Part shown: positions 5,836-63,399 of the stretch, piece after piece
How the letters are laid out: every line of letters starts with the position of its first letter
How positions within the stretch are numbered: position 1 is the stretch's first letter
Source of the DNA: Blasia pusilla
Lineage: Eukaryota
DNA length: 64,000 nt
NCBI GenBank assembly: GCA_050084515.1
Contig: CM114271.1
Coordinates: forward strand, 1,736,001-1,800,000
Direction: 5' to 3'
Notes under the pieces: model-generated
Databases searched by the model: none
Told to the model about the DNA's origin: nothing
Seen by the model: only the letters and a program-made list of their open reading frames with translations
Made by a program: the position numbers and the translations under genes

Positions 5836-6203
5836 TGTCATGACCATATGGATTATGTCGTAGATTATAGTGTGCTAGTAGAAGTCATACCTTATGTAGG
5901 GTCGTAGTGTCTAGGTAGAAATGCGGTTTCATACATAGGGTTGGGGGTTACTCTGTTGAGGGTGAATTTTCCAGTAGGGCCCGCTCTTAGGTTGGAGGAT
6001 ATAGTGTGGAGTGCACTCAAAGAACAGTTAATTCTTTGAGTTGAGCCTGTTGCATTAGGAATTAGCCTTGGTAGTTAGTAGAGCTCTTGGCTATGGTGGT
6101 TCCCGCAAGCTTCGACCTGGATTCTCCCATCATGGAGTGGGTTTTGCTCGATTATATGTGATTCTATGCGTGTTTTATGACAGTAGGTCTTTCATGGATT
6201 TCA
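5836..6203 (+). repeat. Element 1 repeat A1 (368 bp)
   Basis: Direct repeat of 15156-15523, same length, roughly 6-7% differences by manual count. Confidence 0.92.
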
Positions 6204-7703
6204 CTCAAAGAACTAGAGTAGATCGATGGTAGCTTCGATTGTGGATCAGTAGGATCTGGTTAGGGATGATTGTGTACTCAACCGTGGATGTTCGTGGCTT
6301 GTGGCCTATGTTGGAGTTGGGAATCTGGTGTGTGGTTGATTGGGAAAGAGGCGCCTTGCTGAGAGCTTTCCAACGCGCTTTAGATCGCCAGATTTTGTGA
6401 AGGGAGTTGGAAGTTATCAAGGATTGAAGATTCTGGTTCGTGTTCGACGGTTTTCTGATGTGGAGAGCTTGGAGTGCGGAAGCTCTATTAAAGTTCATCC
6501 AGATTGGGTGAGAGGTTCCTGTTGCTACTTGTATTTTAATCTCATGTGAAGCTATATGCTTGAGTGTGTGGAGCGTTGCGGATTTCTACGCATGCATGAA
6601 TCTGGGCGGAGGCGCTGTCGGATTTGCTGGAGGTGTATGGACAGCAAGTTTGTCTGATTTTTAGCTCAGAGTACACAGCTCAGTTGTAGCTGATTTATGG
6701 TGGAGAGATAGCTATGGTGGTCAATTGAATTATGGTAAAAAAGATTCAATTTTGGTCTAGGATTTGTGGAGTAATTGTTGATCGAAATTTCGCGGACTAG
6801 CTCAAGGTCTGGCTATGGTGGACAGCAGATCAGAGGGGCTGGTTGGTTGGTGACTCGTTCGTTGTTGGAGACGCCTATCCTATTGGGGGCACCCTGGTTG
6901 GGCCTCTCTCCATGGCAAAGCATGGCGAAGCGTGGCGAACGGGGCATGTCTTGGCATTTTGAGGCTTCGAGGCAACTCATGGTAGCTCGGGGCAAGTGGG
7001 CGTGAGAGGCGGAGTAAGGAGCAAGGAGCAAGCAAGCAAGCTTGGGCGTGAGGCAGTTTTTGCACGATTTTTTATTTGAATGTTGCATAACTGGTCATCC
7101 ATCTTTGGGCTATTCTGCTTGGAAGACGCTTAACTGCTGAGTTCTTAACTATGCTAGTGTATACACTAGTGTAGCTCATTTGGTGTTGTTCGGAGATGTG
7201 TTAGACGCTTTATGCATCTGAGGTTTTTGGTTGATGGACCTCTAGCACATAGTACGGTGTAGTCTCTCCATGCAGGTGAGATTTTCAGGTGCTGCGAGTC
7301 CGACTAGCACGTCATCGACCCGCAGCGGAGTAGCTATTGTGTTAGAATTGTGTGGTGGGTTATGTGGATTCAGGGGGCGCCACGTTTGGTGGATTGTGTT
7401 ACCTTGATTTCCATTTGCGATTGGAGGGTTGTCGTTGGACTTCCTATGTTTGGATCCCCTCCATCGTTGCTTCTTGCTTGCACGCCCATTGTTAGGGTTG
7501 ACGCTGATTTCCAAAGTAGTGTTACTCCTGTGTGCTACCGGTAGTGAGGCTGGAGTGATGACCAGTAGACCGTGGGAGGCTGCTTGTGGTGCTGACACGT
7601 TAGGTTGCCTACACCCATAGCTAGTAGAGCTAGAATAGTACAGCGACATCGACGCCACTTGGTTACTTAGTGGTGGTAATTTGGTGGTGGTGCGGCATCA
7701 GCG

Positions 7704-10700
7704 TTGGTCATCACGGAGCTGTCTGGTGGTCTGGTTGGGGAACGTGGTGGTTTCACACGGAGTGGATTGAGGTATCGGCTACCTTTTCCACTTCCGACGA
7801 TTGATGAAGAGGAGGACGAGGTGTTCCAAACACCGAGTCTTCTACGTTGTTATCGAGTGTTGCAGCTCCATTCATTTGGGACATGGACTGGATATATGGG
7901 GCCATGAAGGGCCCACAACGATACTCGAGTGCAGTGGGTACTATTGAGTTGGAGGACTTCATGCAGAAGTTTGATACGTGGTGTGATATGCAGATGCTCC
8001 GTAACGCCACGTTATTTACACCCTCCTTGGCTTGGAAGGGGTTGTTTCAGCACTTGGAGGGACCACTCATGGATGATTACCATGAGTTTAGGAAGGACCA
8101 TGTTGCTGAGATTGAGGCGTGGAGACAATATTGGTCTCCAGACTATGTGTCTATCACCCATGGTGGTATTGGTAGTAGTGCTCCTACTATGCCAGCCAGC
8201 CCGACGTTGAGTGGTACGAGTAAGAGCCGGAGTGGGGGTACCAATGGAGGTACCAATAGGGGTACTAGTGGAGGTACTAGTGCCCCACCATCGTTCAGCC
8301 CGGTTGCAGAGTTCTTCAAGAGGTTGAAGAAGAATTATTAGGGAGTGAAGCGAGAGAAGTTGAGGAGTCTTCAGGAATTTGAGCGAAAGACTGGTGAGAG
8401 TCTTCGTGAGGCATACACTCGTATGCGACGTTTGATTCCAGTTACCTAGGGTGTGACTGAGGCTCAGGAAGTCCAGTTTTGGTATGGGATCTTGGACAGA
8501 GAGTTACGCCGCAGGGTACGTGATGTTACTCTTATGAGTGATGATTCACCCACATTGACCCATGTGCTTGCTCTATCTGAGAAGATTGAGCTTAACATGA
8601 TGAAGGAGAGAGTGGTGACATCCGTATTTAGCAGGGATACAACTACTACTTCTCGTGTTCAGCATCCCACCTTACAATCTCATAGTAGTGGTGGTGGTAG
8701 TAGTAGTGGGAGTCATGGGGGGTACACACGACCTCAGTCAGGTCCTAGAGGGACACTTGCGCAGAGACCATTGCCTTCATTTGCTGCCCCGCAGCAAGGA
8801 CAATCATGTTGGACACGTGGAGGTGATCATGTTAGGAGGTTTTGTCCCCAAGAGGATGGGAGACGGACTTTGGAGGATGGGCCTCAGTCGGCCCCAACTC
8901 AGTGGTATCATTGCGGGAGACCAGGTCATCCTCGAGAGCGTTGCTTTGATCTTCATCCAGAGTTGAGATCAGGCTGCGCCCGCGGTGGAGTAGCTCCGAG
9001 AGGCCGAGGTGGTAGAGGTGGTAGGGGTGGTAGAGGTGGACCAGTGGTTGGAGAGCCTACGGTGGCTACCCCAACCACTACGACAGAGTCAGCTATGGGT
9101 GCCAGGATTGAGCAGTTGGAGCAAAAGTTGGCTACTATGGCTGGTATCCAGCATAGATCAGGTTCGGGAGCAGGGGCTTCCACCTCTTATGGAGGGGATG
9201 ATCTCTCTTATATGGCAAGAGCAGCACAAGTTGAGGCATCAACTGCAATTACGAGAGGAGCCACTCAAGCGTCAAAGCCACGTGGTGCTACCCTAGAGTT
9301 TGACCCACATAGGGGTGAGGCTGGGAGGCAGGCTAGGCTTCCCAAGTCATTCTTGTTGTCTGAGGTGCTTAGGACTCCATCCATGGTTCCTACGCAGCCT
9401 ACTAAGCCGACAGTGGGGACTGAGGCATCTACATCGCGTGTAGTAGACACAGATGCAACATCCAGTGCAGTATTGCGGATGGCAACTTCAGTGTTGGGAT
9501 CCCCATTGTTTTTGGCCACGAAGCTGATGGCTTTAGGAGTTGACTTAGCTCATGTATTTTAGCTAGCAGCCACGTTGTGTGAGCGTGGGGGTGTTACTGC
9601 TACACTTGCTGAGGTGGATGAGGGTGTTGCGGTGGAGCGACCCTCTATGTCAATTGTAGCATTGAGTACCAATGCTACTTGGTAGGCAGCAACGGCGAAG
9701 ATGGATGCATTACCAGCCCGGCCAGCCATTGATCGTGTGAGGCTTACACCTAGTATATGTATGTTGGACAACCGGAGTGGGATATTCCGATTGGTGAGTC
9801 CTACAGGGCAGGTGTATAGACCAAATAGAGTCTTGTTAGACTCTGGTGCCCAACCTTTGATGTTGGGAAAGGCGGCATGGATTGGTTTGGGTATTCAGAG
9901 GTCAGAGCTTGAGCCTTGCCCATTCCAGATTCAAACATCACTTAGAGGATCCAATGATAGGTCTCAATTCATGACACAGGATAAGTTCTCTGTACAGTTG
10001 AGACTAGATCATGCGACAGATAGCTCCCGGTTGGGAGTACCTGCAGTGGTCACATTAGCTGAGTCGTATGATGTACTAGTTGGAGGAGCAGTATTGTACC
10101 CCGATGGGTTTTCACATGGATTACTGGACTGAGACACCGTCTTATAGACCGGGTTGGCAGTCCGGAGATGGACGTATAAGCCAAGATCCTGTGAGATTTA
10201 TTTATGGGGCTCGACCAGGAGGGTCTTCCCCAACGGTGTTAGCATCTGTGGCTGGTTTTAGTGGAGTAGTCACTTGGCCATGAGACTTTTTGGAGGGTAA
10301 TGTTTCTGCTATGGATTCTCCTGTGCATGAGGAGGTAGAGGAGGTCCCTAGTTTTGCAGCAGTGGCATTCTCATCGTTGGATGTGCCACTTTGGAGTTCA
10401 GGCGGTGCACTACGGCAGGAGGCTGATCGCCTAGTGCATAAGGCTTGGTGTGAGGCTCTTATACCTCATGAGGAAGAGGAGGCCCCACGGCAGACTCTTA
10501 CTTCTGGTCCAATTGGGTTATCCCATTTGGATACTAAACCCATTGTATGGCAGTATCCGCCGGAGGGCATTTGTGTGTTAGATCTCTTTGGTGGGATTAG
10601 CACTGGTTTGGCTACAGTGTTGCAGACCGGTATTCCTGTGCGGAGATACGTGTATGTGGAGCAAGATGAGACGGCCTAGAGAGTCTCATCCAGATATATC

Positions 10701-13700
10701 GGTCAGTTGATGCGGAGATATCCTGAGTTGTTACCGCCATCAACTATTCGTGGGTACCAGCGTGCTTTGCCGTCACATATTGCATTGTTGGGGGCGCAAG
10801 ACCTTGAGAGGGTTGGTCCTGTGGATTTGGTGATTTCTGGATGGCCATGTCAGGATCATACACGTGCTGGTCGTGGTGAGGGATTACACGACCCTAGGTC
10901 TCAATTTTTTGGGAGATGTTACGGGTGTTACGACATCTTCCGGTTCATCAGGCACGTGCTCCAACTTACATTCTGGAGAATGTTCCATTGTTGGGTGACA
11001 CTCGGACCCAGATGATGGCGAGTGTTCATGAGGTGTGGTCTTGGATTGGATCAGCGGTGTTGTTGGATGCAACGCAAGTTGGCTCATGTGCACATCGTCC
11101 ACGCTTGTGGTGGACAAACTTGTTGCCTAGGGAGGTTCTACATCGAGCATATGATGCAGTGTAGCGGAATCCTTGCCTTACAGTGGGTAGTATCTTGGAT
11201 AGTGGGCGACTTTCTCAAGTGGTGAGGGTTATTGATCGGTCACCCATGGCAATGGTGAACCGTGTGGGCCAGCCTAGGATGGCACTACCCACATTTGTGA
11301 GTTTTCCCTCGTCACATGGCTATAGGGAAGGTGGTCCCGGGCTTGTATGGGATTCTCATGTGCGACAGTTGGTGGAGCCTAACGCTGATGAGAGAGAGCG
11401 TGCGATGGGATTTTCTACTGGTGTGACAACGGTTGCTTCCATTTCTGAGGCTTCACGACGTCATGTGTTGGGTCAGGTCATGGACCTGAATTGTTTGACT
11501 TGGATTTTGAGTCTTGGTATGGCCGAGCAGCGTCAGCTTCGGACTATGTCTGTGGGTCTTCCACCCCTTGTGATGAGTTCGATGGCTACCGAGACGGTCG
11601 AGGCATCGGTTGGGGGCCAGGAGAGTAGTATTTTGCATCCTTGGAGTAAATGGGATGTAATGGCTGGGCATGTGGAGTTGGTTGCTCATGCTGGTGGAGG
11701 AGTTATTTGCTCAGATAATGGTGTAGCTAAGGGTATACCATCTTGTGAGGGGGTTGCGTTGCAGCCAATGGCATCGTCCTCTCCCTCTAGTGTGTCAATG
11801 GAGGAGACTTGGGAGCCATTACTTGGGCCCAAGCTTACGGGAGGTGAGAAACGACGCTTGACACAGTTCCTACGTGCTTATAGGAGTTGTTTTTCCTTTA
11901 GCATGAAGGAGTTGGATGCTTTGGTTGGACCCAGTATACGGATTGATTTGGCTAGTGATACGCCAATCTTCCGTCGTCCCTACCGATATAGTGATATGGA
12001 GAGGGACCTGATTCAGAGTAGGACGTTGGACCTTTTGGAGGCTGGATTAGTGGAGTTGTCGCATGGAGAGTATGCATCAACGATTGTCATGCCTGCTAAA
12101 AAGGATATGCATGGCAACTACACGGATAGGCGGATGTGTGGAGATTATAGTCCTACCAATCGGCAAACCAAGGCCAATAGGTATGCCATGCCTACACCTG
12201 TGGTGGGACAGGCAAAGATTTTCAGTATTTTGGATCTTCGGCCAGGATACCATCAATTACCGATTCGGGAGAGTGACAAGGCCAAGACAATATTTTGAGG
12301 TGTCAACTCTCATGGCAAGGATTTTTTGTACCAATGGAAATTCTTACCCTTTGAGTTGAAGAATGCACCTGCCGAGTTTCAGAGAGTGATGGACAGGACC
12401 CTAGCAGGGTTGGATTTTGTTCGGTGTTACATTGATGATATCTTGGTGTTCAGTAATACGGTGGAGGAGCATCAGATACATTTGCGGATTGTGTTTGAGC
12501 GGTTGAAAGCTCATGGTCTACGTTTGCATCCAGGACAGTGTAAGTTCTTTCATGAGGATGTTGAGTACTTGGGTCATGTGATCTATCCATGTGGTTTGGG
12601 AGTTCAGCAAGCAAAGGTGGAGGCTATTGCACTTATTTCGTGTCCGGTAGATGTGAGTAGAGTTCGGGCATTCATGAGATTGGTGAACTACTATCGGAGG
12701 TATGTGAAGGGATTTAGTGCTATAGCAAAACCTTTGAACCAATTGCTGAAATCAGATCAAGAGTGGCACTAGGGAGATGATCAGGAGAGAGCTTTTGTGG
12801 AGCTCAAGGCCTAGTTGGTGGCGACGCCTATCTTGAGGAGACCTATAAGAGGGCGCCCATTTTAGTTACACACTGATTGGAGTAGGCTGGGACTTGGAGC
12901 GGTGTTGACACAACATGATGATGAGCATATGGAGTGTGTGGTGGCCTATGCAAGTCGTTCGAATAATGCAACGGAGTCGCGCTATACTTCATATGAGGGA
13001 GAGTGCTTGGCAGTAGTGTGGACTGTGGCACACTTTAGGTGTTACTTGTTTGGCACATAGTTTACCCTTGTTATTGATCACCATCCGCTCAAGTGGTTGA
13101 TGGAGTCTGACAAGCTTACAGGGAAGCTTGCACGGTGGGCTCTTATCTTACATGAGTATGACTTCCAGGTGGTACATAGACCTGGAGTTGCCAACCTTGA
13201 TGCTGATGGGTTGAGTAGGAACCCATGTACTAGCCAAGAGGATGCAATTGGGGCTATATGGCATGGCGAGGTTGATGAGGAGATGGTGCCAAGTTGGCAT
13301 GCATCCGCCTTTTTATGTTGGTTAGGGATGGACTCTAGTATGGAGGACCACATGACTTCTTACTCTAGTTAGAGGGTAGATGGCCAGCCTTCACATCCTA
13401 AGGTTGGAGATGGTGGTACGGATCAGCATGATATTCATGATGATGCGTTGGTGTTGGAGTTCCTACAAACCAGTAGGGTGCCAGGCATAGTGAGTGCCAA
13501 GGAGCGAGACCGTGTTCTTCAACGTGCTAAGAGGTATCGATTGGAGGAAACACATATTCTCCGTGTGTGGGAGGATAGTAGAGGACAAGTAGTGCCGCAT
13601 TTGGCTCAGAATGAGCGTATTGTGCGACATGCCCATGAGGAGTTGGGACATTTTGGGGTAAAGCGTACATATAGCTTACTCCTTGGTCAGTATTGGTGGC

Positions 13701-14872
13701 GTGGCATGCATACTCAGGTGCAGCAGTTGGTGTCACGTTGTATGGTTTGTGTCCGGGTGAGGGCATCATTCAATGCCCCTACACCACAGTTACATCCCTT
13801 GCCTATTATGGGGTTGGGTTACCGTTGGAGTGTGGACTTTGCAGGACTATTACCGTTGACTGTACGACATGATCGATATGTGTTGGTGATGGTGGAGCAC
13901 TTCTCCAAGTGGATTTAGTTGGTGGCATTACCTGACAAGGCAAGTGAGGGAACGTCGTATGTGTTTCTTGATAGAGTGCTAAGTCATTTTGGTGCACCAG
14001 CTGAAGTGCTGACCGACCCGCGTACAGAGTTTTAGGGTGAGTTTTAGGTCTTGTGTGACAAGGCGTTGATTGATCATCGGACCACGTCTTGAGATCATCC
14101 AGAGGCGGATGGTTTGGTTGAGAGTGTGGTTCAGACGGTAAAGAGGGCATTGCGCAAGTATGGCCTACAGAAGGGACATCTTGGAGACTGGGATATTGAG
14201 TTGCCATGGTTAGCCATGGGGTATAGGTTAAGTCGCCAAGCATCCTTGGCTTCCTTCTCGCCTTATTTTCTGTTATACGGCCAAGATCCAGACTTGCTAG
14301 CAACAATTCTTCAGGAGTCTAATGAGGTGGTGAACCTTGATGACCCATAGATGTGGATGAGAATGTGTTCTCAGCGGGCATAGCTCTTTCGGAGAGTTGT
14401 GCCAATAGCCTTTGAGAACCTTGCCATTGCTCAACACAGGGATACGTTGAGGTATGCAACCATTCGGGGTGGAGGTTATCGACCATCGATTCATAGGTTC
14501 CATGTGGGGGACTATGTCTATTTGCAGCAGATTGCACTGACAACGTTGGATGTGACGGCATGCCGCACTATTTTACGAGTGCGCGAGGTGTTAGCTTCTG
14601 AAGTTCTCATGTTGGAGGGTCGTGATGGAGTTGTTTGGAAGGACCATGTGCGTAATCGTGCGCCATATCATCTTCCAAATGTGGATGGTACTGTTGAAGC
14701 CAGCTTAGCCATGATACGTGCTAGCTTGAGGTGCATGTTGTGTGGGTCTGCTGGTAACGCAACCCGTATGTTGGTGTGTGATCAGTGTTCTAGGGGTTGG
14801 CACATGATGTGTTTGACTCCACTTATGGATGTTGTTCCTACTGGAAGGTGGGTTTTTCCTCGATGTACTTAG
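7704..14872 (+). pseudogene. Element 1 polyprotein Gag-PR-DNMT-RT-RNaseH-IN-PHD (stops and frameshifts)
   Basis: Degenerate zinc knuckles and an RGG tract; protease VLLDSGAQ; RT RRMCGDY, NAPAEFQR, YIDD; RNase H HTDWS..GLGAVL..YASRS; IN HEELGH..CMVC, DFAG, ADGLVE; C-terminal PHD. Confidence 0.92.
10569..11525 (+). pseudogene. Element 1 C5 cytosine DNA methyltransferase domain (DNMT3-like)
   Basis: Motif I VLDLFGGISTG, II YVYVE, IV DLVISGWPCQ, VI YILENV, VIII AHRPRLWWTNL, IX ERERAMGF, X RRHVLGQVMD, in canonical order. Confidence 0.9.
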
Positions 14873-15049
14873 GAGAGGTAGATGACTTGATCTTTGCATG
14901 ATATGGATTTCAGATAGACGACTAATGATGGGGCAACCTAGCACATGGCCTTCTGATTTGTGCACCCAAGAAGGTGTATAGCATGTAGTAGATGTATAGG
15001 GCTACCCGAGAGTTAGAGGGACCTAACCGCCAGTGAGGGGGGGGCGAGT

Positions 15050-15629
15050 TGTGGTACACTTGTGTTTGTGCATGCTCTCATCTATGTTATGTATGTATGT
15101 GAGTATGGTATGTCATCGATGTATGTTGTATGACGATGTGGATTCGCACGACAGTTGTCATGACCACAGGAATTATATCGTAGAGTATAATGTGCTAGTA
15201 GAAGCCATACCTTATGTAGGGCTGTAGTGTCTAGGTAGAGATGCGGTTTCATACATAGGGTTGGGGGTTACTCCGTTGAGGGTGACTTTTCCAGTAGGGC
15301 CCGCTCTTAGGTTGGAGGATATAGTGTGGAGTGCACTCAAAGAACAGTTAGTTCTTTGAGTTGAGCCTGTTGCGTTGGGAGTTAGCCTTGGCAGTGAGTA
15401 GAGCTCTTGGCTATGGTGGTTCCCGCAAGCTTCGACCTGGATTCTCCCATCGTGGTGTGGGTTTTGCTCGATTGTATGTGATTCTATACGTGTTTTATGA
15501 CAGTAGGCCTTTCACGGATTTCAATTGTGGTACACTTGTGTTTGTGGATGCTCTCGTCTATGTTATGTATGTATGTGAGTATGGTATATCAACAATATAT
15601 ATTGTATGACGATGTGGATTCGCACGACA
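15050..15629 (+). repeat. Element 1 3' block B1-A2-B2
   Basis: B1 15050-15153 and B2 15526-15629 are both 104 bp. The B1/A2 junction is GACA-GT-TGTC. Confidence 0.92.
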
Positions 15630-15702
15630 GTATAGAATAGATTGTTTTATGAGGTCCCAAAATATTGAAGTGATAAAAAAAGAAACGAAATAAAGAATTC
15701 TT

Positions 15703-15940
15703 ACCTTGCATCGAGATAATGTGAGGTTGCATCAACAACATCCATTGTCATGGACGTAGTTGCATCATTTGACACCTTAAATGAGATGGCATGTGATTCC
15801 TTATATACATATTTATATAAGTATTTCAGAGCATAAATGATATTAGTGATTTCCAAATTGACATGACAATCAAAGAGAGTAAATAATAAAGGATTATAAG
15901 GAACAACCCAAAAATTATCCAAAGCTTGATCGCGCTTCAT
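15703..15940 (-). pseudogene. Helitron Rep exon upstream of the retroelement insertion
   Basis: DNFWVVPYNP..FDCHVNLE...KYLYKYVYK...YLDAR followed by a GTAAG donor. It joins YISSSQACWR near 5790 to give the canonical YLDARYIS..ACWR. Confidence 0.8.
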
Positions 15941-24059: not shown

Positions 24060-24996
24060 CCACTTTAGAAGATGCATGTTGCAATAGAGGTGATTGCTAT
24101 GCGATAGGCATTCATGATATGGACGACATTAATGCAAATGTTATGTCGAGATTTATTGGAGAGGTAATCCTTCTAACATATCTACAATTTATTTTCTTAT
24201 GGGAGCTTTGTTTTTGGGAACAAGGGTAGATAGTAATATAGTAAATCTCACCAATTCATTACATGTTATGTACATGAGTATATTTATCTCAGTGTCGACT
24301 CTATTCTGAATGAGGGGATGAGTCGTATCTATCTAAGTGAATTTTTGAACATATGCTTGCCTTCCGGATTTCCTCCTCATCGTTTGTGTTTGAAGATTGG
24401 TGACCAATCATGTTCTTACGAAACATGAATGGATCACATGGAAAGCAAACGAGATAAGATTGGCGATTTGTGGATTCATGCAATATTGCATAGATGCTGA
24501 AATTATTCCATGGAAGAATATTGGAGATTGAGTCTTTATTCCACATATACCATTGATTGCATCGGATTCCGGTTTGTCATTTGATTTACGTAGGTTTCAA
24601 TTCCCTATTCGTCCACCTTTTGTTATGACTATTAATAAGTCTCAAGATCAACCGTTGCAAAAGGTTGGCATTTACTTGCCTACTCCTGTATTTTCTCATG
24701 GTCAATTTTATGTAATATTATCTAGGGTAGGGAAGAGAAGTTCCATCCACGTACCATTGGAAGTGATGAACATTCAAATTAGGAATGTGATTACACACGA
24801 AATATAATGTATAAAGAGATACTTGGATGAAATAAATTTTTGATCTGCAAACATTTTTCTATTTGACATATGCCAACAAGAAAATATTTCACATTTAATG
24901 GACAACAAACAAATTTTGAGTGAATCAATATTAGTGTCGAAAAAAAACTTCCTAAACGTTTTTATATTTCCTGTATATTGCAGGGGCACTTACTAG
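24060..24996 (+). mobile_element. Helitron 3' fragment: Pif1 helicase C-terminus plus 3' terminus
   Basis: [47 protein letters not shown], an imperfect hairpin CCTGTATATTGCAGG, then CACTTACTAG|T at 24996. Confidence 0.8.
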
Positions 24997-27965: not shown

Positions 27966-27979
27966 ACATGAGAAAGATG
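27966..27979 (+). promoter_or_regulatory. Self-priming primer-binding site of element 2 (equivalents at 6203-6215, 37849-37863, 54541-54554)
   Basis: ACATGAGAAAGATG lies immediately after A1 and is the exact reverse complement of CATCTTTCTCATGT (27790-27803), about 30 nt downstream of TATATAA (27759). Confidence 0.75.
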
Positions 27980-45824: not shown

Positions 45825-45845
45825 CCCTAAACCCTAAACCCTAAA
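45825..45845 (+). repeat. (CCCTAAA)3 plant telomeric repeat inserted in the element 3 integrase
   Basis: Three exact CCCTAAA units flanked by the direct repeat CGCACC (45821-45826, 45846-45851). Absent from the other copies. Confidence 0.8.
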
Positions 45846-52090: not shown

Positions 52091-55000
52091 AAAACTTGAT
52101 GGGTAGAGGATTTGAACTTGAACCGTTTTCACCAAAATTAGGTTTAACATCACTACCCTATGCACTCACACATATAAGACAAGATCTCATTTCACTACAT
52201 CAATAAAAACCATATTTTTGCTCATAGTAGATTCTAAAATTCATATTTCTTTAGAAAATAAGTGATAGCCTATATGTCAGTATGTGGATGACAAAGTATA
52301 TACATTTAAAAATCTATAAATAAATAAATAAACATATACATGAATGTAATTATTTTTGGAGTATCTAAATCTTTCAAAAGAAAAAATTATATGCAACAAT
52401 TTGAAATCCATAATTGAAAATCAAAACATATGAATTTTAAAAATATTAATACTCAAAAAATTATAGGAGATAAATAGAAAAGTAAATTTTAGATTAGAAG
52501 AAAAAATTTTAGTGGATAATAAATCTACTATTCCAAAAATTTTTAAAAATCATCTTGCAACAAATTGATAGTGAACTCCATGGTAATAGTCTTGATGAAT
52601 ATTTTTTCCTTTTTCCCTTAAATTCATAAAAAATATTTTTTGAAAATATATCAAATCCTTTAAAAATAGACTACAAATAAGTGGATTTATTTTTTAAAGA
52701 AATATATATATATAATATTAAATTGTTATCATGGAAAAGAATCTATACTATGAATATTATTAAAGCAAATGTATCTTTCATTTGATATTTGAGTTCAATT
52801 AGAATATTCAAAGTAAAATCAACTTCTCATATTATAAAATTTATGGTATTTTTAAAAAAGAATATGAATATTTAATCCATCTTATGTAAATAATGTTTCT
52901 CATATAATATTGGATGATAATTCATAAAATTTTATAAATAATTTTCATATGTATGATTGTAACCAATTTATAAATCATGAGGATAGGACTATATTGGTTT
53001 AGTAAGTCATGAAAATGAAATTGAGTTTATCAAGTCATAATTTAAGATATTTTGTACATAAGTCATTCAATGATGAATCATAAAAATCATAATTTCTTTT
53101 AGTGCTCATTATTTCAAAAAATATTTTATGATAAGAAAATTATTCCTCTAAGTAGAATGTCTTTTTTGAAATTTTAATATATTCTTCCTCCTTTATTGAG
53201 GGTGGTATCTCTATATTTCTTATCTTTTGACCTATCTACTAAAACATACTTTTCAACACACTCCTCTAAAAAACCATGCTTTGAGGTTCTCTATGCTTGT
53301 AACTTGTCAAAGTGCGAACATACCACTATTGTGATATATTTTAAAAACTTTCATTAACCCATGAGGTAGTTGTGTTAGATCATTTGGAACTAAGAACTAC
53401 ATAATCTTCTATTGGACTTAGCCGTCATGCAATTATGGGTAGAATTTCCCAAAAATAAGGGGTAGGTGGGGATTAAGGATTTCAATTTCAAGACCAACCA
53501 ATTTCCTATTAGGTTTATCTTCAATGAAACACACTTACTCCCCATGTTTTATAACATATTACAGTCTTCCATATTTTTTTCGAGAGCTTTGATATTATCT
53601 TGTCCCAAAAGTTTCAGTTCATGTCTTTCTACTTTTTAAACCTCTTTAGTCTATATCTCATGGTCTCTAAGGTCTTTCTGTCCCTCAAACATAAATCATT
53701 AAATAATTAAAGGCTCAATCTTATGAACGCTAATTATTGACAAAAAGAGTAAATTTATCTTATGGGAAATCTTGAGCAAAGAATGTTGTTTGAATTAAAT
53801 CTATTGCAACACATGGCAAAGTAGAGAGCACATATCAAACATGATCCATAAATGTAGCCTATTTCATGGAAAGGGAGTAATTGTAGATCCAACACTCTAT
53901 CATCATGGGCAATCATCCCTCCACCACACCCACCACACATGCTAAACATTCCAAAATATTAATGGGGATGTTTGATAAGAGTTTCATGGCTAGTCAAGTT
54001 CAAATGTCTTGTCGACTTAAGGATGGAACCCTATCATAATTTCTTATCTGCGAGTTCATATTGTCACATCTGAGTAGCCGATAGGCCGAGATCTATCGTG
54101 GATAGGGCATAGGAGCCAACGGACTATCTTGAGTGTAACTTTGTCCCACAATGTCGGATGAGGTTGAGGTTAGGTCCATTGTGTCAGGACCGTCGTTTCT
54201 GACGACTTTCATGTTGAGGTCTTTTACAACCGGGTGACTTGTTGACCAGGTCACCTGCCCCTGGTAACCTGTGCGCGCAGGTTACCAAGGGAAGGGCTAT
54301 TTTTAGGAGAAGAGCCTTTTGGCTCTTCCCAACCTATATAAGAGAGGAAGATGGCTTTCCTAAGCCATCTTTCTCATGTTGGGCCGTTGGAGCACCTCCC
54401 TTGTATGTGTGTGAGCTAGGACTAGGGTGCTAGCGTCCGGATTCCTTGATAGCACAAGGTGGACGAGGCTCGATATGCCGATGTAGATTGAGGAGTGGAG
54501 TTTTAGGCCGGGTGTGCCATTTTTACTACTCTTTATTTTTACATGAGAAAGATGTCAGGGGGCTGGTGGGAATTCGTTGTTTGCAGGTAGGCAAGCGAGT
54601 TGCCTCGGTTGGGGAGCCCCTGGAGATGTGTGTGTGACATTTTTGTGTCATTTTCTGTTCGAAAGGCCGTGGGCGGAAGCGCTGTCCGTTTTTCTCAGTT
54701 TTTGCTGGTGCGGATTGATGGGGGACAGCAGCCGAGTGTAGCGTGTGGTGGGGCGTTGGGTGTACGCAAGTGAAGGCGTCGAGAGAGAAGGAACGGGCAA
54801 GTTTGGGTCTTGCAGCCGCCGGGGGGCTGTCAAGTAAAGACGGCTAGGTTAGGTCGAAGTTTAGGGTTCAGGGCGCGGATAGCATGGCGCGGACAACAAA
54901 GCGGCGAGCAAGGCGGACAAGAAGTCGGGCGTGATAGGCCCCCCCCCCGGCATTTAGGGCCCAAGGGGCCCGCATAGGGCCGCGGTCCAAGTCTTTCCCC

Positions 55001-55253
55001 CCTCTCCAACGTGGTAGGAGTGGATGCAGTTGTCGTGAACGTGGTAGGACGGACGAGGTCGGTCCGGCGAACGCGGTGTGCATGGGCGTGCGTGAGGCTG
55101 GGTATGTCATCACGGGATTGACGTTAGCACAGGTGAGCTAGTGAGGCGTGTGGGAGACTCTCGGTGAGTTTGAGTGCTTGAGCGGGTGAGACAGGGTTTG
55201 TCATCACGGCGTTCTTCTAGGTTTCGGAAGAACGGGGTAGTGCGAGTAGTGGT

Positions 55254-58200
55254 GTGACACGGAGTGGAGTGAGATACCGAGGGGTTACCAGTGAGGAGCT
55301 CCCGCGACATCCATCCGTGGATCGGATCGTCATCATCGGACACGGGTCCGTGACGAGATCATCGCAGAGACAAGAGTACTTGGCAGGAGATGGACGACAT
55401 GGGCCATGGGGCATGCGTCGTTTCTCGGTGCAAATGGGCACCATCGACTTAGATGATTTCATCCAGGAGTTCGACACATGGTGCGACTTCAGGAGATACG
55501 GACCCGACACGGTTCAACCCTTTCATGGCATGGAAGGGGTTGTTCCAAAGATTTTGGAGGGTCATCCGATGGATGACTACATGGAGTTCCGATCACTATA
55601 TTCAGTAGAGATCGATGCCTGGAGGATGTATTGGGCTCCAAGGTATGTGTCCACTAGTGGTCGCGAGGCATATGATGGGATTGTGAGAGGAGAGAGACCC
55701 ACACCATCAGCCCGGAGACTAGATGGAGAGGAGGGCGTGACACAAAGCGATGTGGCAGAGACCTCTGGTGGTAGAGGGCCACCCAGCTTCAGCCCCACAG
55801 TGGAGTTCTTCCGACAGTTGGGGAAGAGCTACCAGGGCGTATGCACCGACCAGCTGAAGACTCTACAGGATTTTCAGCGCCAATCGGGTGAGAGTCTGAG
55901 AGAGGCCTTCACACTGATCATTGCGAGGAGGCGCAATCACCCAAAGATTGGTGGGGTTCGGACCGAGAACTACGGAGGAGAGTCCGAGATGCGGTGCTGA
56001 TTCACACATCGAAGCCCACATTGAAGGTGGTCTTTGAGTTGTCTGAGCGTATTGAGCTCAACATGAGTGAGGAGCGGTAGTGACCGCTGGATTTTTCGAG
56101 AGTCGACGGGTCCACGAAGCGGCGGTGACCCCACCGGTGCCAAATGAGCACCGATTACACGGAGCGGGCGGTGTGCCTAGAGAGAGCGGCGGGTACCGTG
56201 AGCCTATGAGGCAACGACCCGCACCTACATATGTTGCCCAGCAGGACCGGTGTGGTCTTGTTGGACGTGTGGGCGGGCCCATAGGCAGAGAGACGCCACA
56301 AAGATGGGAGAGGACCACTGGCGCCTCCGATTGCGCAGAGCCACAGAGGATGGCCCCACCCGGCACCAGTGTGACCATTGCCACAGATATGGTCACACTA
56401 GGGATAGATGTTTTGACCTTCGCCGAGGGGCACGTCCAGCAGGTAGGCCGAGGGCCTGGGGGCGGTTGTCCTGGAGGAGGTCGGGGAGTTCTTCCTGGAC
56501 GTGGTGGAAGAGGACCACCACCAGCCAGAGGAGATGGAGCAAGAGCACTAGAGCCGGCACTTCTCTCACGCATTGATCAGTTGGAGCAGAGGATTGTTGC
56601 CATGACGATTATGCAGCTTAGGGAAGGCACGGAGCTGCGAGCAACTAGTGTCACTCTAGTCTCTACCTCTTACCTTGACCCGGGTGAGGATCTCTCCAAT
56701 ATGGGATTTATGTGTAGTGCAGCCCAGGTTGAGGCAGCTGCGGTGGTGACTCGGGGTGCTGCGAGAGGCACCGAGCCATCAAGAGGTGGAGTTGAGATTG
56801 ACCCACCAGATGGGACCGATGGGCGGCAGGCCAGGGTTCCACAGTCGTTCACATTGTCGGAGGCACTACACACACCATCGATGGTGCCTTGACGACCAGC
56901 GTGTGTCTGATTCGGCACCACGTCGACGTCACGAGGAGTTGGAGTGACAACTCCTATGCCGGCTCGAGTGGAGTGAGTGTCGACTATAGTGTTGGAGGTG
57001 GCCACTAGAGTGAGTCAGACTCCGCTATTTTCCGCCTTAGAGTTGGCGACGTTGGGAGTTGGACCAGCTTAGGTGTTCCGGTTGGCCGCCACGTTGTGTG
57101 AGCGTGGAGAGATGCGCTTCTTGTTCGAGGTAGTTGAGGAGGTGGTGGACTTGCCCTCAGAGCGGTCGGGGCGTTCCCCACGAGTCATGGCATGCGGCGG
57201 CGCGGTTGGTAGATATGCCACTCGACCGCCATAGAGCGGCGATGGTGACACTGGAGAGTAGTGTTTGGATAACGAGTCGAGTATTTTGCTTGGTTAGTCC
57301 GAAGGGGACGATATACCACCGCAAGCGCCCTACTTGATTCGGGAGCGCAACCCTTGATGTTAGGAAGGCGGCGTGTTTAGCGTTGGGGTTCGGAAGGCCG
57401 ACATTGAGACTTGTCCCTTCCAAATACAGACCTCGATTGGGGGCGTATCACCCACTCAGTATATGACTCGACAGGAGATTGTTGTGAGAGTCCATCCAGA
57501 GCATGCGACGGATAGTGCTATGGTGTGCACACGTGCGATTACGACACCAGCTGAGTCGTACGATGTGTTGGTGGGGAGTATAGTGTTATATCCCCTAGGA
57601 TTCATCCTTGACTTCTGGGAGGAGACGGTTGCTTATGGGCCAGGATGGCGGTCAAGTGACGGTCGGATGAGTCGATTACCCGTCTTTGTTTATGGACGCA
57701 GGTGGTCGATCGAGGCGAAGTCAGTGACCACGTTGGCGGCTTTCACATGTAGTGGTAGCTGGCCAGGAGAGTTGTTGGAGGGGAACGCACATGCGGAGGA
57801 TGTCCCAGTAGCGGATAGTCCCACGGAGAGACAGGCCATGGTGGGTGTCTCTTCCCATGTTAGCGATGCCTCTTCACCATTATGGGGTACGTTTTGACAG
57901 CTACAGAGGAGTGCCGACAACCTCGTGAGGTAGGCGTGGAGTCATGTTTTTATCCCAGAGCAGCGAGAGTCACGTGGCGATCGGGCTCTTGGAGTGGAGA
58001 CGATGACCCCACTAGATACCACACCTGTTGTGTGGCAATGCCCAGAGGAGGGTGTTAGGGTGTTAGATCTCTTTGGAGGGATTAGCACCGGATTGGCTGC
58101 AGTATTGCAGGCGGGCACACGGGTGCATCACTACCTTTATGTTGAGAGAGATGAGACCGCGCGGCGAGTATCATTACGTCACGTGGCGAGATTGGTCCAG

Positions 58201-61200
58201 AGGTATCCCGAGTTGTTGTCGGTATCTCGAGACGGGGATACCAAAGATACGCTACGGGTCGACATATCTTTGGTGGGGGCATAGGATCTGGATAGAGTTG
58301 GCACCATTCATTTGGTGATTGCTGGATGGCCATGTCAAGGTCATTCATCAGCTGGCCAAGGATTTGGATTGCAGGATCCGAGGTGAGGGATGTTTTGGGA
58401 GATGCTGCGAGTAGTACGACACTTGCAGCAGAGTCAGATATGTTCTCCAACGTACATTTTGGAGAACGTGCCGTTGTTGGGAGATACTCGTGCACGTGTG
58501 ATGACGAGTGTACATCGAGTGAGTCCTGGTTGGGACATTTTGTGTTGTTAGATGCAGCGAGAGTTGGGTCACGTGCCCATCGTCCACGACTGTGGTGGAC
58601 GAACCTGATACCATCAGAGGTATTGAGTCGAGCCTACAGTGGAGTCCAGAGAGCACCACATCTCACGGTGGATGCTATTTTGGACTCAGGGCGTCGATCT
58701 CAGGTGGTGACACGCGATGATAGACCACCGTTGGCCATGGCCAATAGGGTGGGGGAGTTGAGGGCAGCCTTACCTACGTTGGTGAGCTTCCCAGCATCCC
58801 ATGCCTTTCGTTAGGGAGGGCCAGGCATGATTTGGGATGAGGTGACCGGAGTATTGGAGGAGCCTATAGCAGATGAGCGCGAGCGCGCCATGGGGTTCAC
58901 TACCGGTACATTACGGGCGGTGCGAGGGATGACTGAGGCATCACGGAGACAGGTGTTGGGGCAGGCGATGGACCTCAACTGTCTCACATGGATAGTCAGC
59001 CTAGGTATGGCTGAGCAGAGACGGATGCGAGTGTCATCCATGCCCTCACGTCCACGAGTTGGACCACTGCCTACAGGGTTTGTACTGGCATTGGATGGGG
59101 GCGAGACGAGGAGAGAGAGGCACCCATGGACTTCCTGGGACGCTGTCGAGCAGAGAGTGCGAAGGCGGCTAGAGTAGCACATGTTCATTTTTCGGATGTG
59201 GAGCATGGTGTAGGAGGTCAGAGTGGAGTGGCTGTTGTGGAGGTGGCTAGGGTTGCTACATAGCAACCAAAGCCGGAGGTTGCGTCCTCTCCGAGTGAGG
59301 TCACGATGGAGACTTGGGAGCCTGTGATAGGTCTCAAGTTGATAGGAGGAGAGCGACGGCAAGTTCATAGGTTTCTGAGAGGGCATGTCAGTTGTTTTGC
59401 CTTCAGTATGAGAGACTTGGGTACGCTGAAGGGTCCCGGGATACGGATTGAGTTGGCTAGTGATAGGCCGATCTTTCGTCGACCCTACAGGTATTTTGAT
59501 ATGGAACGAGCCTTGATTCAGAGCAGGAGTCATGACTTGTTGGAGGCAGGACTTGTGGAGTTGTCACATGGGGAGTATGCATCTGCCACAATCATGCCGG
59601 TGAAGAAGGATATGTATGGCAATTGGACGGATAGGCGGATGTGTGGAGATTACGGTCCTATCAACGGACTGACGAGGTCAGATCGGTATGCCATGCCTAC
59701 TCCTGAGGAGATCTTTGATGCGGTAGGGCATGCAAAGATCTTGAGTACTTTAGATCTTCGTGCTGGCTATCATCAGCTTCCTATCAGGTTGGAGGACAGG
59801 GAGAAGACATCATTCTGGGGGATAGATCGGTTCGGGAAAGATTGCTTATATCAGTGGCGGTTCTTACCATTTGCGTTGAAGAACGCGCGTGCGGAGTTTC
59901 AGAGAGTGATGGATAGGATTCTGGCTGGCTTGGATTTTGTATGATGTTACATAGATGATATTCTTATCTTCAGTTCCATGGTTGAGGAGCATGAGCGACA
60001 CTTGGAGGAGGTGTTTCGGCGATTGCAGTTACATGGACTGAAGTTACATCCAGGCAAGTGCAGATTCTTTCAGGAGCAGATTGAGTACTTGGGACACACC
60101 ATATACCCGAGTGGGTTAGGCATTGATGAAGACGAAGGTAGAGGCTATTGCGTGAGATTCCACGCCCTCTGAGATGTGAGTCGAGTCCGAGCATTTCTTG
60201 GACTGGCGAACTTCTATCGACGGTATGTCAAGGGTTTTAGTGCGATCGCAAAGTCTTTGACCTTGTTGATGAGACTTGATCAGGTGTGGTTGTGGGGAGA
60301 TGATCAGGAGCGAGCATTTCAGGAGCTCAAGGACAGGTTGACGTCCTCACCCATTTTCTGAGAGACGGTTAGGGGTCGCCCATTCCAGTTACATACGGAT
60401 TGGAGCATGTTGGGTCTAGGAGCAGTGCTTACTCAGAGGGATGACGAGGAGAGGGAGTTTGTTGTGGCTTACGCGAGTCGATCGAACAACATTGCAGAGG
60501 CGAAGTACAGCTCCTATGAGGGAGAGTGCTTGGCTGCAGTGTGGGCCGTGGCACATTTTAGGTGCTATTTATTTGGCAACCCTTTCACACTTATCACTGA
60601 TCATCAGCCATTGAAGTGGTTGATGGAGTCCGACAAGCTTACGGGAAAGCTTGCCAGGTGGGCTCTATTACTACAGGAGTATGAGTTTGAGGTGGTTCAT
60701 AGGCCAGGTCGGCTGAACCAGGATGCGGATGGGTTGAGTCGTAACCCATGTTCGAGTCAGAGAGACGTCACGGGAGCTCGATGGCACGGAGAGAGTGATG
60801 AGGAGATGGTGCCCGGTTGGCATGCATCTACCTATCTTTGTTGGTTGACTATGGCAGGTCAGCCATAAGTGATGACTCCAGTGGTGGGATTGGATGATGA
60901 GTCTTTGGATCCGGAGGTTAGTGAGGAGGCGACAGGTGGTCGTGATATCCATGACGACGTGGAGGTTGTGGACTTCTTGCGCACTGGCGTCATTGCGAGT
61001 ACAGTGAGTGCTAGGGAGCGGGATCGGATCCTACAGAGAGGCAAGAGGTTCAGGTGGGAGGGGACTCACATTTTGCGGTTATGGGGAGATGGTAGGATAC
61101 GAGTGGTACCTCATCCCTCCCAGCGAGCACGTGTAGTGCGACATGCCCATGAGGAGTTGGGACATTTCGGAGTAAAGCGTACTTACAGCTTACTCTAGGT

Positions 61201-62383
61201 TCAGTATTGGTGGCGCGGCATGCATACTGGGGTACAACAGTTTGTGGCTTGATGTATGGTATGAGATAGAGTGCGAGCATCCTTCAATGCTCCCACTCGC
61301 ATGATTACATCCTTTGCCGATTATGGGTTTAGGTTATCGGTGGAGTTTAGACTTTGCGGGACCTTTGCCATTGACAGGCGTCATCATAGGTAGTGCGTGT
61401 TAGTCATGGTGGAGCATTTCTCCAAGTGGATAGAGTTGGTGGCACTACCAGACAAAGCGGCGAGGAACGGCTTATGCGTTTCTAGATCGTGTGCTTAGTC
61501 ACTTTGGTGCACCGGGAGGTGTTGACCACCAGGTACCGAGTTCAAGGGAGAGTTTCAAGCCTTGTGTGATCAGGCGCTGATAGATCACCGCACCACGTCC
61601 AGGGATCATCCTGAGGCGGATGGATTGGCGGAGAGAGTGGTACAGACGGTGAAGAGAGGATTGCGCAAGTATGGCTTGCAGCGGGGACAGTTGAGGGAGT
61701 GGGACCTACAGTTGCCATGGTTGGCTATGGGTTGTTGCTTTAGTCGGCAGGCATCTTTGGCGTCATTTTCACCGTACTTTTTGCTCTTTGGGAGAGAGCC
61801 AGATTTACTTGCAGCAATTTGACGTGACATGGCGGAGGTGTTAGATCTTGATGATCCAGAGGTGTGGGTGCAAGCATGTTCTCAGAGGGCAGAAGTTTTT
61901 CGTAGAGTTATGCCTATGGCCTTTGAGAACTTAGCTATTGCCCAGCATAGAGATACATTGAGGTATGCGACCATTCGTGGAGGAGGTTATCATCCAGGGA
62001 TTAGGAGGTTTCATCCTGGAGATTACGTGTATTTACAGCAGGCGGCACCCACGACACTAGATGTCACTGTAGGGCGCACGATCCTACGTGTGCGCGAGGT
62101 ATTACCGACCGGAGTCCTCATGTTGGAGGGATGAGATGGTATGGTTTGGAAGGATCATATGCGCGATTGTGCGCCATGTCATCTTCCGAACGTAGATGGG
62201 ACGGTGGATCCAAGCTTGGCAGTGGTACCTGCAGGCTTGAGGTGTATGTTGTGCGGATCTGCGAGGGGTGCAGCCACCATGTTGGTATGTGATGGTTGTT
62301 CTCGAGGGTGGCATATGTCATGTCTGACCCCCCCTCTTGATGTGGTTCCCACGGGACGATGGATGTGTCCGAGATGTGTATAG
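55254..62383 (+). pseudogene. Element 4 polyprotein Gag-PR-DNMT-RT-RNaseH-IN-PHD
   Basis: Same motifs as element 2, including CDHCHRYGHTRDRC, YIDD, TDHQPLKWL, ADGLAER and an intact C4HC3 PHD at 62243-62380. Confidence 0.9.
58054..59015 (+). pseudogene. Element 4 DNMT3-like methyltransferase domain
   Basis: VRVLDLFGGISTG, IAGWPCQGHS, YILENV, AHRPRLWWTNL, ERERAMGF, RRQVLGQAMD. Confidence 0.9.
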
Positions 62384-63399
62384 GGTAGTAGGTCATGTCA
62401 GAGAGATGTGATATTTTCTATCTCGGAGTTAGGGGATCCAACCGCCCCACTAGGGGGCGGTTGTGTGATCTCCATGTATATGTATGAGTTTATTTTTGTA
62501 CATGTGTGGATCGACCCGTGTGTGGGGAAGATCGGTGTTGTGTGGTGTAGATGTGACCAGCGATGTATGTTGTGTAGCGATATGTATGCGCACGACATAC
62601 GGTGTCATCACATCTCGAGTAGCCGATAGGCCGAGATCTATCGTGGATAGGGCGTAGGAGCCAACGGACTATCTTGAGTGTAACTTTGTCCCACAATGTC
62701 GGATGAGGTTGAGGATAGGTCCATTGTGTCAGGACCGTTGTTTCTGATGACTTTCATGTTGAGGTCTTTTACAACCGGGTGACTTGTTGACCAGGTCACC
62801 GCCTGGTAACTGTCTTGCGCGCGAGTTACCAAGGGAAGGGCTATTTTTAGGAGAAGAGCCTTTTGGCTCTTCCCAACCTATATAAGAGAGGAAGATGGCT
62901 TTCCTAAGCCATCTTTCTCATGTTGGGCCGTTGGAGCACCTCCCTTGTATGTGTGTGAGCTAGGACTAGGGTGCTAGCGTCCGGATTCCTTGATAGCACA
63001 AGGTGGACGAGGCTCGATATGCCGATGTAGATTGAGGAGTGGAGTTTTAGGCCGGGTGTGCCGTTTTTACTACTCTTTATTTTTGTTGTGTGATCTCCAT
63101 GTATATGTATGAGTTCATTTTTGTACATGTGTGGATCGACCCGTGTGTGGGGAAGATCGATGTTGTGTGGTGTAGATGTGACGAGCGATGTATGTTGTGT
63201 AGCGATATGTATGCGCACGACAATATGAAAATTGAAAAATATTTAGTCCCATAAGTCAAAATCAGTTAATGCAAGGCTCGATAAAAAAATATTATAGAGG
63301 AATTATGAACTAAATTCATATATCCAATGTATACTAGTATCAATTTAAACTCCACCATACAAGTCCATAACACATCTTTGCAATACCGGTAGAGCCCTC

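Follow-up and report, generated by a model that had tools for sequence, protein, structure and literature searches.

Split direct repeats in Ty3/Gypsy-order retrotransposons of Blasia pusilla: integrase ends inside the LTR and possible insertion from end-joined cDNA

How retrotransposons with the coding order of Ty3/Gypsy elements come to stand in the genome with split direct repeats, and not between two identical LTRs, is the question raised by a 64,000-nucleotide stretch of the Blasia pusilla genome (contig CM114271.1), which is referred to here as the window and supplies all coordinates below. The original prediction described four copies from three families with repeat A alone at the 5' end and the block B-A-B at the 3' end. 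Self-blastn and boundary prints agreed on this layout, A1-internal-B1-A2-B2, for 4/4 full elements. The division into three diverged families was also borne out, as the internal regions of copies 2 and 4 were 93% identical in self-blastn and those of every other pair 72-78%. All four elements lie on the plus strand, and each is bounded by an exact target site duplication (TSD) of the predicted sequence. Copy 1 (family 1, TSD GTAT) occupies positions 5836-15629, with A1 at 5836-6203, B1 at 15049-15153, A2 at 15156-15523 and B2 at 15525-15629; the dinucleotide GT (15154-15155) separates B1 from A2, and one extra nucleotide (15524) lies between A2 and B2. Copy 2 (family 2, TSD GAGT) extends from 27486 to 36795 and comprises A1 (27486-27965), B1 (36038-36175), a GT spacer (36176-36177), A2 (36178-36657) and B2 (36658-36795), the last two joined without an extra nucleotide. 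In copy 3 (family 3, 37333-47679, TSD AGCC) the repeats are A1 at 37333-37847, B1 at 46905-47032, whose end is mutated to TATA, A2 at 47035-47549 and B2 at 47552-47679, with the spacer GT at 47033-47034 and two extra nucleotides (CA) at 47550-47551 between A2 and B2. Copy 4 (family 2, 54062-63222, TSD ATAT) has A1 at 54062-54540, B1 at 62460-62597, a disrupted B1-A2 junction at 62598-62602, A2 at about 62603-63084 and B2 at 63085-63222, again with nothing inserted between A2 and B2. The lengths of A and B matched the earlier values, to within 1-2 nt for B of copy 1 and A of copy 3.

A further insertion, overlooked in the original prediction, is a solo A-B remnant (TGTCAC ... GCGCACGATA) on the plus strand at 3372-4001, with the TSD TTGT at 3368-3371 and 4002-4005; compared with copies 2 and 4, its A is 76% and its B 83-86% identical.

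The window thus holds five insertions, four full elements and one solo A-B, and in 5/5 an exact 4-bp TSD lies outside the start of A and the end of B. The termini of these insertions are TGTC...GACA, the A1 start of copy 3 being mutated to TATC. Within each copy, identity between A1 and A2 and between B1 and B2 was, respectively, 93.5 and 93.5% (copy 1), 96.1 and 97.1% (copy 2), 90.4 and 92.7% (copy 3) and 96.2 and 97.8% (copy 4). A chance origin of the repeat arrangement is excluded: inside each copy, A1 differs from A2 as much as B1 does from B2. The same equality held in the window copies and in the related loci considered below, and B2 was therefore copied anew in the same cycle and not inherited separately.

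The encoded order was PR-DNMT-RT-RH-IN-PHD, in which, by Pfam matches in copy 1 and in the metagenome locus L048, RH is of the RT_RNaseH type and IN consists of H2C2 plus rve. In copy 1 the PR motif (9833-9850) sits upstream of RT (12206-12583), which is followed by RH (12776-13159), IN (13613-14098) and a PHD finger (14732-14866). The segments at 10581-10987, which we take to be DNMT motifs, were read by eye only and are divided by a frameshift; DNMT gave no Pfam match in copy 1, and PF00145 matched L048 and is also recorded for the Marchantia protein matches. The predicted PR-RT-RH-IN order without a tyrosine recombinase was upheld, as Pfam found no Phage_integrase match in the six frames of copy 1 or in the three plus-strand frames of L048, and DNMT and the C-terminal PHD finger came to light as two extra domains. 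The best named protein matches were from Marchantia polymorpha, with at most 73% identity to any copy, and a Klebsormidium PHD-finger retrotransposon protein was 38-46% identical to the window copies in pairwise comparison only. Among solved structures, Ty3 Gag-Pol was the closest (E 1e-105), together with PFV integrase for the IN part. The window copies are all dead; for copy 1 this follows from the 37 stops that frame 3 carries from the gag region to the PHD finger.

The position of the LTR in such an element depends on where reverse transcription is primed. A search by eye downstream of A1 found no tRNA-type primer binding site (PBS), and a tRNA-primed reading was dropped in favour of self-priming. 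In 4/4 window copies the sequence adjoining A1 was exactly complementary, over 13-15 nt, to a site that lies about 175 nt upstream, within A, and is itself preceded by a TATA-like box some 30 nt further upstream. The self-priming PBS of copy 1 is at 6203-6215; in copies 2, 3 and 4 the PBS and its complement are at 27966-27979 and 27790-27803 (the putative RNA 5' end), 37849-37863 and 37672-37686, and 54541-54554 and 54366-54379, respectively. The paired sequences were specific to each family, giving three different sequences in the window copies. A fourth was found in metagenome loci, with an exact complement of at least 10 nt in 6/9 loci, of 8 nt in one and none in two. Minimum free energy folds paired RNA nucleotides 1-10 or more with the PBS in 8/8 RNAs. 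A Tf1-type self-priming PBS after A1 is thus strongly supported by sequence, and the RNA probably starts at the PBS complement inside A, since complementarity of the A1-adjoining sequence to the first 13-16 nt from that site is the Tf1-type signature. At the other end, the G-run of a polypurine tract (PPT) lay immediately 5' of B1 in 4/4 window copies and 18/18 loci (15037-15048 in copy 1, ending at 36037 in copy 2). As the PPT adjoins B1 and the self-priming PBS adjoins A1, standard reverse-transcription logic would give a linear cDNA of the form BA-internal-BA. The idea that the 'true' LTR is B+A is accordingly strongly supported by these two sites, the more so as the PBS complement co-varies across four sequence families.

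Relatives in metagenome assemblies comprised 80 loci, of which 40 matched the A and B probes and 40 did not. Among 31 distinct 3' ends, 19 were B-A-B and 11 were B only; the B-A-B loci come from independent assemblies and have their own flanks and diverged repeats. The arrangements B-A and A-B-A were absent from the 5' ends of all 12 distinct metagenome loci, and B-A was likewise absent from the 5' end of the 4 window copies. By eye, the TSDs of nine full metagenome elements were exact in three, had one mismatch in five and two mismatches in one. One A-internal-B element (L030) had flanks without a matching TSD, and another locus (L035) ended in B-A followed by unrelated DNA. Four contigs (L005, L061, L073 and L075) share the same 97-269 nt at start and end; they were not accepted as circles, as repeat collapse in assembly looks identical. 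B was shorter than A in 4/4 window copies and 18/18 loci.

With the LTR taken as B+A, the ends used by integrase, TGTCA... at the start of A and ...CGACA at the end of B, stand back to back inside the LTR and form the palindrome GACA-NN-TGTC. Its spacer was 2 nt long in 18/18 loci and in 3/4 window copies, and the B end was the most conserved terminus across families. The predicted form GACA-GT-TGTC was intact in copies 1 and 2; it did not hold for copy 3, which reads TATA-GT-TGTC, or for copy 4, where the junction has 5 nt plus an indel. Seven different dinucleotides occurred as spacers among the 18 loci, 15 of which had GC, GT, AC or AT. More distant relatives were among the 17 loci scanned for the motif (L057 and 16 of the 40 unmatched by the A and B probes), and GACA-GC-TGTC was present 3' of the coding region in four (L002, L008, L009 and L074). 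The possibility that the spacer is re-made in each cycle from flanking DNA was rejected, as GC, GT, AC and AT differ from one another by transitions at the CAG/CTG sites that lie symmetrically in GACA-GC-TGTC; it is also countered by the distant loci with the palindrome, all of which have GC. The ancestral spacer was GC.

The second joint, A2-B2, behaved differently from the PPT-B1 boundary. By eye, it was an exact fusion of the nucleotides after the PPT to those before the PBS in copies 2 and 4 and in 11/18 loci; copies 1 and 3 and 7/18 loci deviated from this by 1-8 nt. The PPT-B1 boundary had no indels of this kind. Since A2-B2 varies while PPT-B1 stays free of such changes, these observations fit a joint formed anew at each insertion, and we infer that it may represent the fusion of two cDNA ends.

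These results suggested a route in which a 2-LTR circle, or other end-joined cDNA, is opened at the upstream palindrome; this is the best model for the sequences and is unproven. Reverse transcription would yield the linear cDNA, the two termini of which would be joined, the A end to the start of B, either by ligation into a 2-LTR circle or by template switching of the reverse transcriptase. Within the upstream LTR, integrase would then nick the palindrome 3' of each CA, leaving recessed CA-3'OH ends with 2-nt 5' overhangs, a geometry like that of 3'-processed retroviral DNA, and the opened molecule would insert with a 4-bp stagger as A-internal-B-A|B. Retroviral integrases have been reported to cleave palindromic LTR-LTR junctions, according to the available text of three papers (PMC1905944, PMC1180852, PMC4372172). 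The A-internal-B elements and solo A-B could be by-products, arising when integrase cuts both palindromes or a 1-LTR circle, or alternatively through later B×B and A×A recombination.

The reopened 2-LTR circle of the original prediction would fit the geometry, in that the A2-B2 joint fuses post-PPT to pre-PBS nucleotides, with small variation between copies. The palindrome occurs twice, in identical form, in a free 2-LTR circle, so that opening of the other copy should give A-B-A-internal-B elements, in equal number if the choice were random. The 5' ends that could be read, 4 in the window and 12 from distinct loci, included none (0/16), and the direction of opening is the main problem for the circle model. 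Even if all A-B-A-internal-B copies had collapsed to A-internal-B, that class (11) would be smaller than the B-A-B class (19). Speculatively, the direction might be set by B being shorter than A, which places the upstream palindrome nearest a cDNA end.

The missing orientation would be accounted for by a route that is directional by construction, namely replication of the DIRS/Ngaro type with an integrase in place of the recombinase. Here a full-length RNA would run from inside A1 to inside B2, the B1-A2 junction would serve as template to restore and join the missing ends, and integrase would open the whole-unit circle at B2-A1. The repeat layout matches that of Ngaro, PAT-like and VIPER elements (PMC6681497; Fig. 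4c legend of PMC5890265, in the text available), and the B1-A2 junction does resemble a joined pair of element termini. However, the PBS and PPT are positioned as an LTR element requires, B1 and B2 match each other as closely as A1 and A2 do in each copy, which is a better fit to duplication of one template, and the A2-B2 joint differs among copies of one family, whereas a joint copied from RNA should pass on unchanged. We consider this route unlikely. Slightly less likely still is that a linear A-internal-B-A-B cDNA is made directly, by plus-strand priming at the B end and minus-strand priming beyond B2, followed by ordinary end processing by integrase. Such a cDNA would also be directional and would need no circle, and its ends would be canonical (NN-TG...CA-NN), with the 2-nt spacer as the usual dinucleotide removed by integrase; but the B end is not rich in purines, B2 is followed by random host DNA and hence by no primer site, and neither the co-varying PBS downstream of A1 nor the PPT upstream of B1 would have any function.

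That only A is repeated at both ends might suggest that the LTR is A alone, B being a duplicated segment of the 3' UTR or B2 lying outside the element. This is already contradicted by the TSD outside B2 in all five window insertions; moreover, it is B1 and not A2 that the PPT adjoins, the B end is the terminus best conserved across families, and the divergence of B1 from B2 parallels that of A1 from A2, so that we regard it as very improbable. The most improbable of all seems an artefact of assembly, or a rearrangement that ordinary BA-internal-BA elements underwent once inserted, given that the layout recurs in four window copies of three families and in 19 distinct loci of independent assemblies, each occurrence with separate flanks and diverged repeats. 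Insertion from end-joined cDNA is preferred here, and we give about even chances to the full reading, that these are Ty3/Gypsy-order LTR retrotransposons of a streptophyte lineage carrying DNMT and PHD domains, which have their integrase ends inside the LTR and insert from end-joined cDNA. The extension of this reading to an entire clade of streptophyte Gypsy elements with an integrase, inserting only via end-joined cDNA (a 2-LTR circle or its equivalent) opened at a palindrome inside the LTR, is tentative and rather doubtful.

Unintegrated LTR-LTR circles are usually regarded as dead ends, and a lineage productive only via joined cDNA ends would, if real, be a natural counter-example to that view; its 10-bp palindrome would offer a simple substrate for studying internal cleavage by integrase. 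The elements also bear on how split direct repeats and tyrosine-recombinase retroelements arose. If the end-joined route were clade-wide, the split-direct-repeat layout would have evolved in an integrase element, and the present elements would show an intermediate from which the Ngaro, PAT and DIRS types could arise by a swap of the integration enzyme. In practice, LTR finders built around a pair of identical terminal repeats will misplace the ends of such elements or miss them, and the biology of bryophyte transposons gains testable features in DNMT, PHD and the self-priming PBS.

The layout itself, which the original prediction had considered novel, is not new: a DIRS-like repeat layout was noted in 2018 for KnitGypsy-Dnmt3 of the alga Klebsormidium nitens (de Mendoza et al., PMC5890265, Fig. 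4c legend). Our literature search for earlier descriptions of the layout found only that legend and a 2026 preprint naming 'Gypsy-DNMT3'. The main text of PMC5890265, as available, gives no PBS, PPT, TSD, palindrome or mechanism for KnitGypsy-Dnmt3, and the words Marchantia, Klebsormidium, PHD and methyltransferase are absent from the available text of a large plant LTR survey (PMC6317226). What is new here is the self-priming PBS, the B+A extent of the LTR with the integrase ends inside it, the reading of the A2-B2 joint and the metagenome relatives that share the layout; the novelty is thus one of mechanism, not structure. KnitGypsy-Dnmt3 resembles the window elements in combining DIRS-like repeats with Gypsy domains and in having a Gypsy-type Pol with an internal Dnmt3-like cytosine methyltransferase, and differs in its host. 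With canonical Ty3/Gypsy elements (Metaviridae) the window elements share PR-RT-RH-IN, an HHCC plus DDE integrase, TG...CA ends, a 4-bp TSD and a PPT, but they lack two identical bounding LTRs, have their integrase ends inside the reverse-transcription LTR and carry DNMT and PHD domains in addition. Tf1/sushi and Tcn1 elements have ordinary LTRs. They resemble the window elements in a PBS complementary to the start of their own RNA and not to a tRNA, self-priming being stated for Tf1/sushi, Tcn1 and TAR in the available text of PMC6317226. They have a chromodomain where the window elements have a C-terminal PHD finger. Tyrosine-recombinase retroelements of the DIRS order are not known to produce a TSD on insertion, and in this the window elements, with their 4-bp TSDs, differ. 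Of that order, the Ngaro, PAT-like and VIPER elements likewise begin with A1 and finish with B1-A2-B2 (PMC6681497, in the text available). Unlike them, the window elements have a DDE integrase, TSDs and TG...CA ends and no tyrosine recombinase. The palindrome at the circle junction of PFV and HIV-1 has a 4-nt spacer, as against the 2 nt found here. The likeness to these 2-LTR circles is that integrase cuts a palindrome of two back-to-back viral ends, as reported in the available text of PMC1180852, PMC1905944 and PMC4372172. In the viruses, however, it is the circle junction that forms the palindrome, and cleavage there is a side route, whereas in the window elements the palindrome lies inside the LTR and the route would be obligatory.

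Comparison of the window with itself, together with inspection of each boundary, identified four full-length elements on the + strand: copy 1 (5836-15629), copy 2 (27486-36795), copy 3 (37333-47679) and copy 4 (54062-63222). Each has segment A at its 5' end and B-A-B at its 3' end, between exact 4-bp target-site duplications (TSDs; GTAT, GAGT, AGCC and ATAT, respectively). Internal identity was 93% between copies 2 and 4 but 72-78% for every other pair, so three families are represented; the predicted A-internal-B-A-B layout was confirmed in all of them. The copies start with TGTCA and end with CGACA, except that the start of copy 3 is mutated to TATCA. The two A and the two B segments were equally diverged within each copy (A/B identity of 93.5/93.5, 96.1/97.1, 90.4/92.7 and 96.2/97.8% for copies 1-4), which indicates that both pairs were identical at the time of insertion. 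A fifth insertion, absent from the original prediction, is a solo A-B copy at 3372-4001 with the TSD TTGT.

The clade's five insertions share one orientation and all fit into 60 kb of AT-rich DNA (3372-63222), with just 537 bp between copies 2 and 3. Chromodomains steer chromovirus insertion to particular chromatin; by analogy, the integrase might use its C-terminal PHD finger to reach certain chromatin. In the elements (8000-16000, 28000-48000 and 56000-64000) GC skew ranges from +0.19 to +0.26 and AT skew is mostly negative, and the AT-rich background (37-38% GC) is almost free of strand skew; the bias could come from coding-strand composition or from strand-specific editing. Outside the elements and unrelated to them is an inverted repeat pair (2556-2984 and 24288-24714; 430 bp, 74% identity), and an 86-bp palindrome at 22284-22369 is likewise not part of them.

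For the domain search, the frame of copy 1 was translated through its stops, which were written as X. One frame carried reverse transcriptase (RT), RNase H, the zinc finger and core of an integrase and, at the C-terminal end, a PHD finger, and no tyrosine recombinase was found in any of the six frames of copy 1, which bears out the claim of integrase-type coding. A protease motif lies at 9833, and between protease and RT are frameshift-split cytosine-methyltransferase (DNMT) motifs (10581-10987). Frame 3 contains 37 stops, so copy 1 is dead. Two proteins of Marchantia polymorpha that carry DNMT and RT domains were the best named relatives (at most 73% identity), and the relatives also included a PHD-finger retrotransposon protein from Klebsormidium, so a bryophyte host is probable; the closest solved structure was Ty3 Gag-Pol and, for the integrase part, PFV integrase. 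The related metagenome locus L048 shares the PR-DNMT-RT-RH-IN-PHD order of the window copies, its DNMT also lying between protease and RT (frame 2, residues 1535-1601). By eye, the consensus of 15 aligned relatives has methyltransferase-like motifs between RNase H and integrase, and the clade may hold two different DNMT positions.

A profile built from 15 clade proteins retrieved 80 metagenome loci, 40 of which matched A/B probes and represented 36 distinct loci after removal of four duplicate pairs; the remaining 40, more distant families or too short, were left out of the end counts. All 12 informative 5' ends had a single A, with no B-A or A-B-A among them. The 31 informative 3' ends comprised 19 with B-A-B (one with a shortened B2), one with B-A followed by unrelated DNA, and 11 that stopped exactly at the GACA of B1 without A2-B2 (L030, L043, L044, L045 (=L049), L058, L065, L069, L077, L080, L022 and L031). 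Four contigs (L005, L061, L073 and L075) start and end with the same sequence over 97-269 nt (98-100% identity, ~9-10 kb apart), reflecting either repeat collapse in assembly or circular templates.

A tRNA-type primer site was not found after A1. Instead, in all four window copies the 13-15 nt adjoining A1 match, as an exact reverse complement, a stretch of A that lies ~175 nt upstream, and the sequence of the pair differs in each family. The metagenome relatives have a fourth such sequence, with the complement ~130-140 nt upstream; it was exact over at least 10 nt in six of nine loci, weak in one and absent from two, both decayed. A TATA-like box lies ~30 nt ahead of the complement, and in minimum-energy folds the first 10-16 nt paired with the primer site in 8/8 RNAs tested. 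This complementarity is the signature of the self-priming known from Tf1. Self-priming is stated for Tf1/sushi, Tcn1 and TAR in a passage of PMC6317226. The signature predicts that the RNA starts inside A and that the primer binds where A1 ends; since the G-rich polypurine tract (PPT) runs exactly up to B1, the LTR made by reverse transcription should be B+A, as originally proposed and now well supported, and the accepted scheme for LTR elements then predicts a linear cDNA of the form BA-internal-BA. B (e.g. 36658-36795) is very G+T-rich, containing TGTG and TATG runs, and follows only A2, not the 5' A; one might speculate that it provides downstream polyadenylation signals missing from the 5' A copy.

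The A2|B2 joint of copies 2 and 4 links the base preceding the primer site to the base following the PPT with nothing in between, and there is one extra base in copy 1 and two in copy 3. Inspected by eye, the joint was exact in 11 of 18 distinct loci and off by 1-8 nt in seven (one with an 8-nt loss and one added base), whereas the PPT|B1 boundary of the 18 loci had no such indels. The joint therefore looks like cDNA termini joined afresh at each insertion, as would be expected of the junction in a 2-LTR circle or of a template switch from end to end. The TSD-flanked ends, where A starts and B stops, stand back to back inside each LTR as GACA-NN-TGTC. The spacer was 2 nt long in 18/18 distinct loci and in three of the four window copies, the exception being copy 4 with its indel. 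The spacer letters vary, but the GC, GT, AC or AT found in 15 of the 18 loci correspond to transitions at CAG/CTG sites within GACA-GC-TGTC, and this exact 10-bp palindrome occurs in four more distant loci. Nicking after each CA would produce 2-nt 5' overhangs and recessed CA-3'OH ends, a geometry matching that of processed retroviral ends.

The best reading, a leading but unproven model that refines the original prediction, is that cDNA ends become joined and that integrase would then open the palindrome of the upstream LTR, yielding A-internal-B-A|B. Retroviral integrases are reported to cut palindromic junctions between two LTRs (PMC1905944, PMC1180852 and PMC4372172). The original prediction of a reopened 2-LTR circle fits the layout and the A2|B2 joint but leaves direction unexplained, and this is its weak point: a free circle carries two equivalent palindromes, but the product expected from opening the second was seen at 0/16 5' ends (four window copies and 12 loci). 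B was shorter than A in every case, which places the upstream palindrome nearest a cDNA end, and that this nearness sets the direction is speculation. Directionality would be inherent in a DIRS-type route or in an RT-made joint, either of which could also have produced the structure. Under the joined-cDNA model, double cleavage or a 1-LTR circle would give the A-internal-B and solo A-B copies, which recombination explains too. The 11 loci ending at B1 could likewise reflect B×B recombination, or direct insertion of a double-palindrome-cut molecule or a 1-LTR circle; L030, the sole one with both ends visible, had no matching duplication.

PMC6681497 treats a split-repeat layout as characteristic of Ngaro, PAT-like and VIPER elements, proposed there to combine a Crypton recombinase with Gypsy-type RT/RH. 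The structure is not new for the present lineage. The literature searched, including PMC5890265 without its supplements, yielded no description of primer site, palindrome, duplications or mechanism, and a 2026 preprint names a 'Gypsy-DNMT3' of streptophytes. What the window adds is bryophyte-type members, and what the analysis adds is a concrete, testable mechanism. KnitGypsy-Dnmt3 of Klebsormidium was described in 2018 with a DIRS-like repeat arrangement and Gypsy domains (de Mendoza et al., 2018; PMC5890265, Fig. 4c legend), and so shares with the window elements both the split-repeat layout and the Gypsy-type domains.
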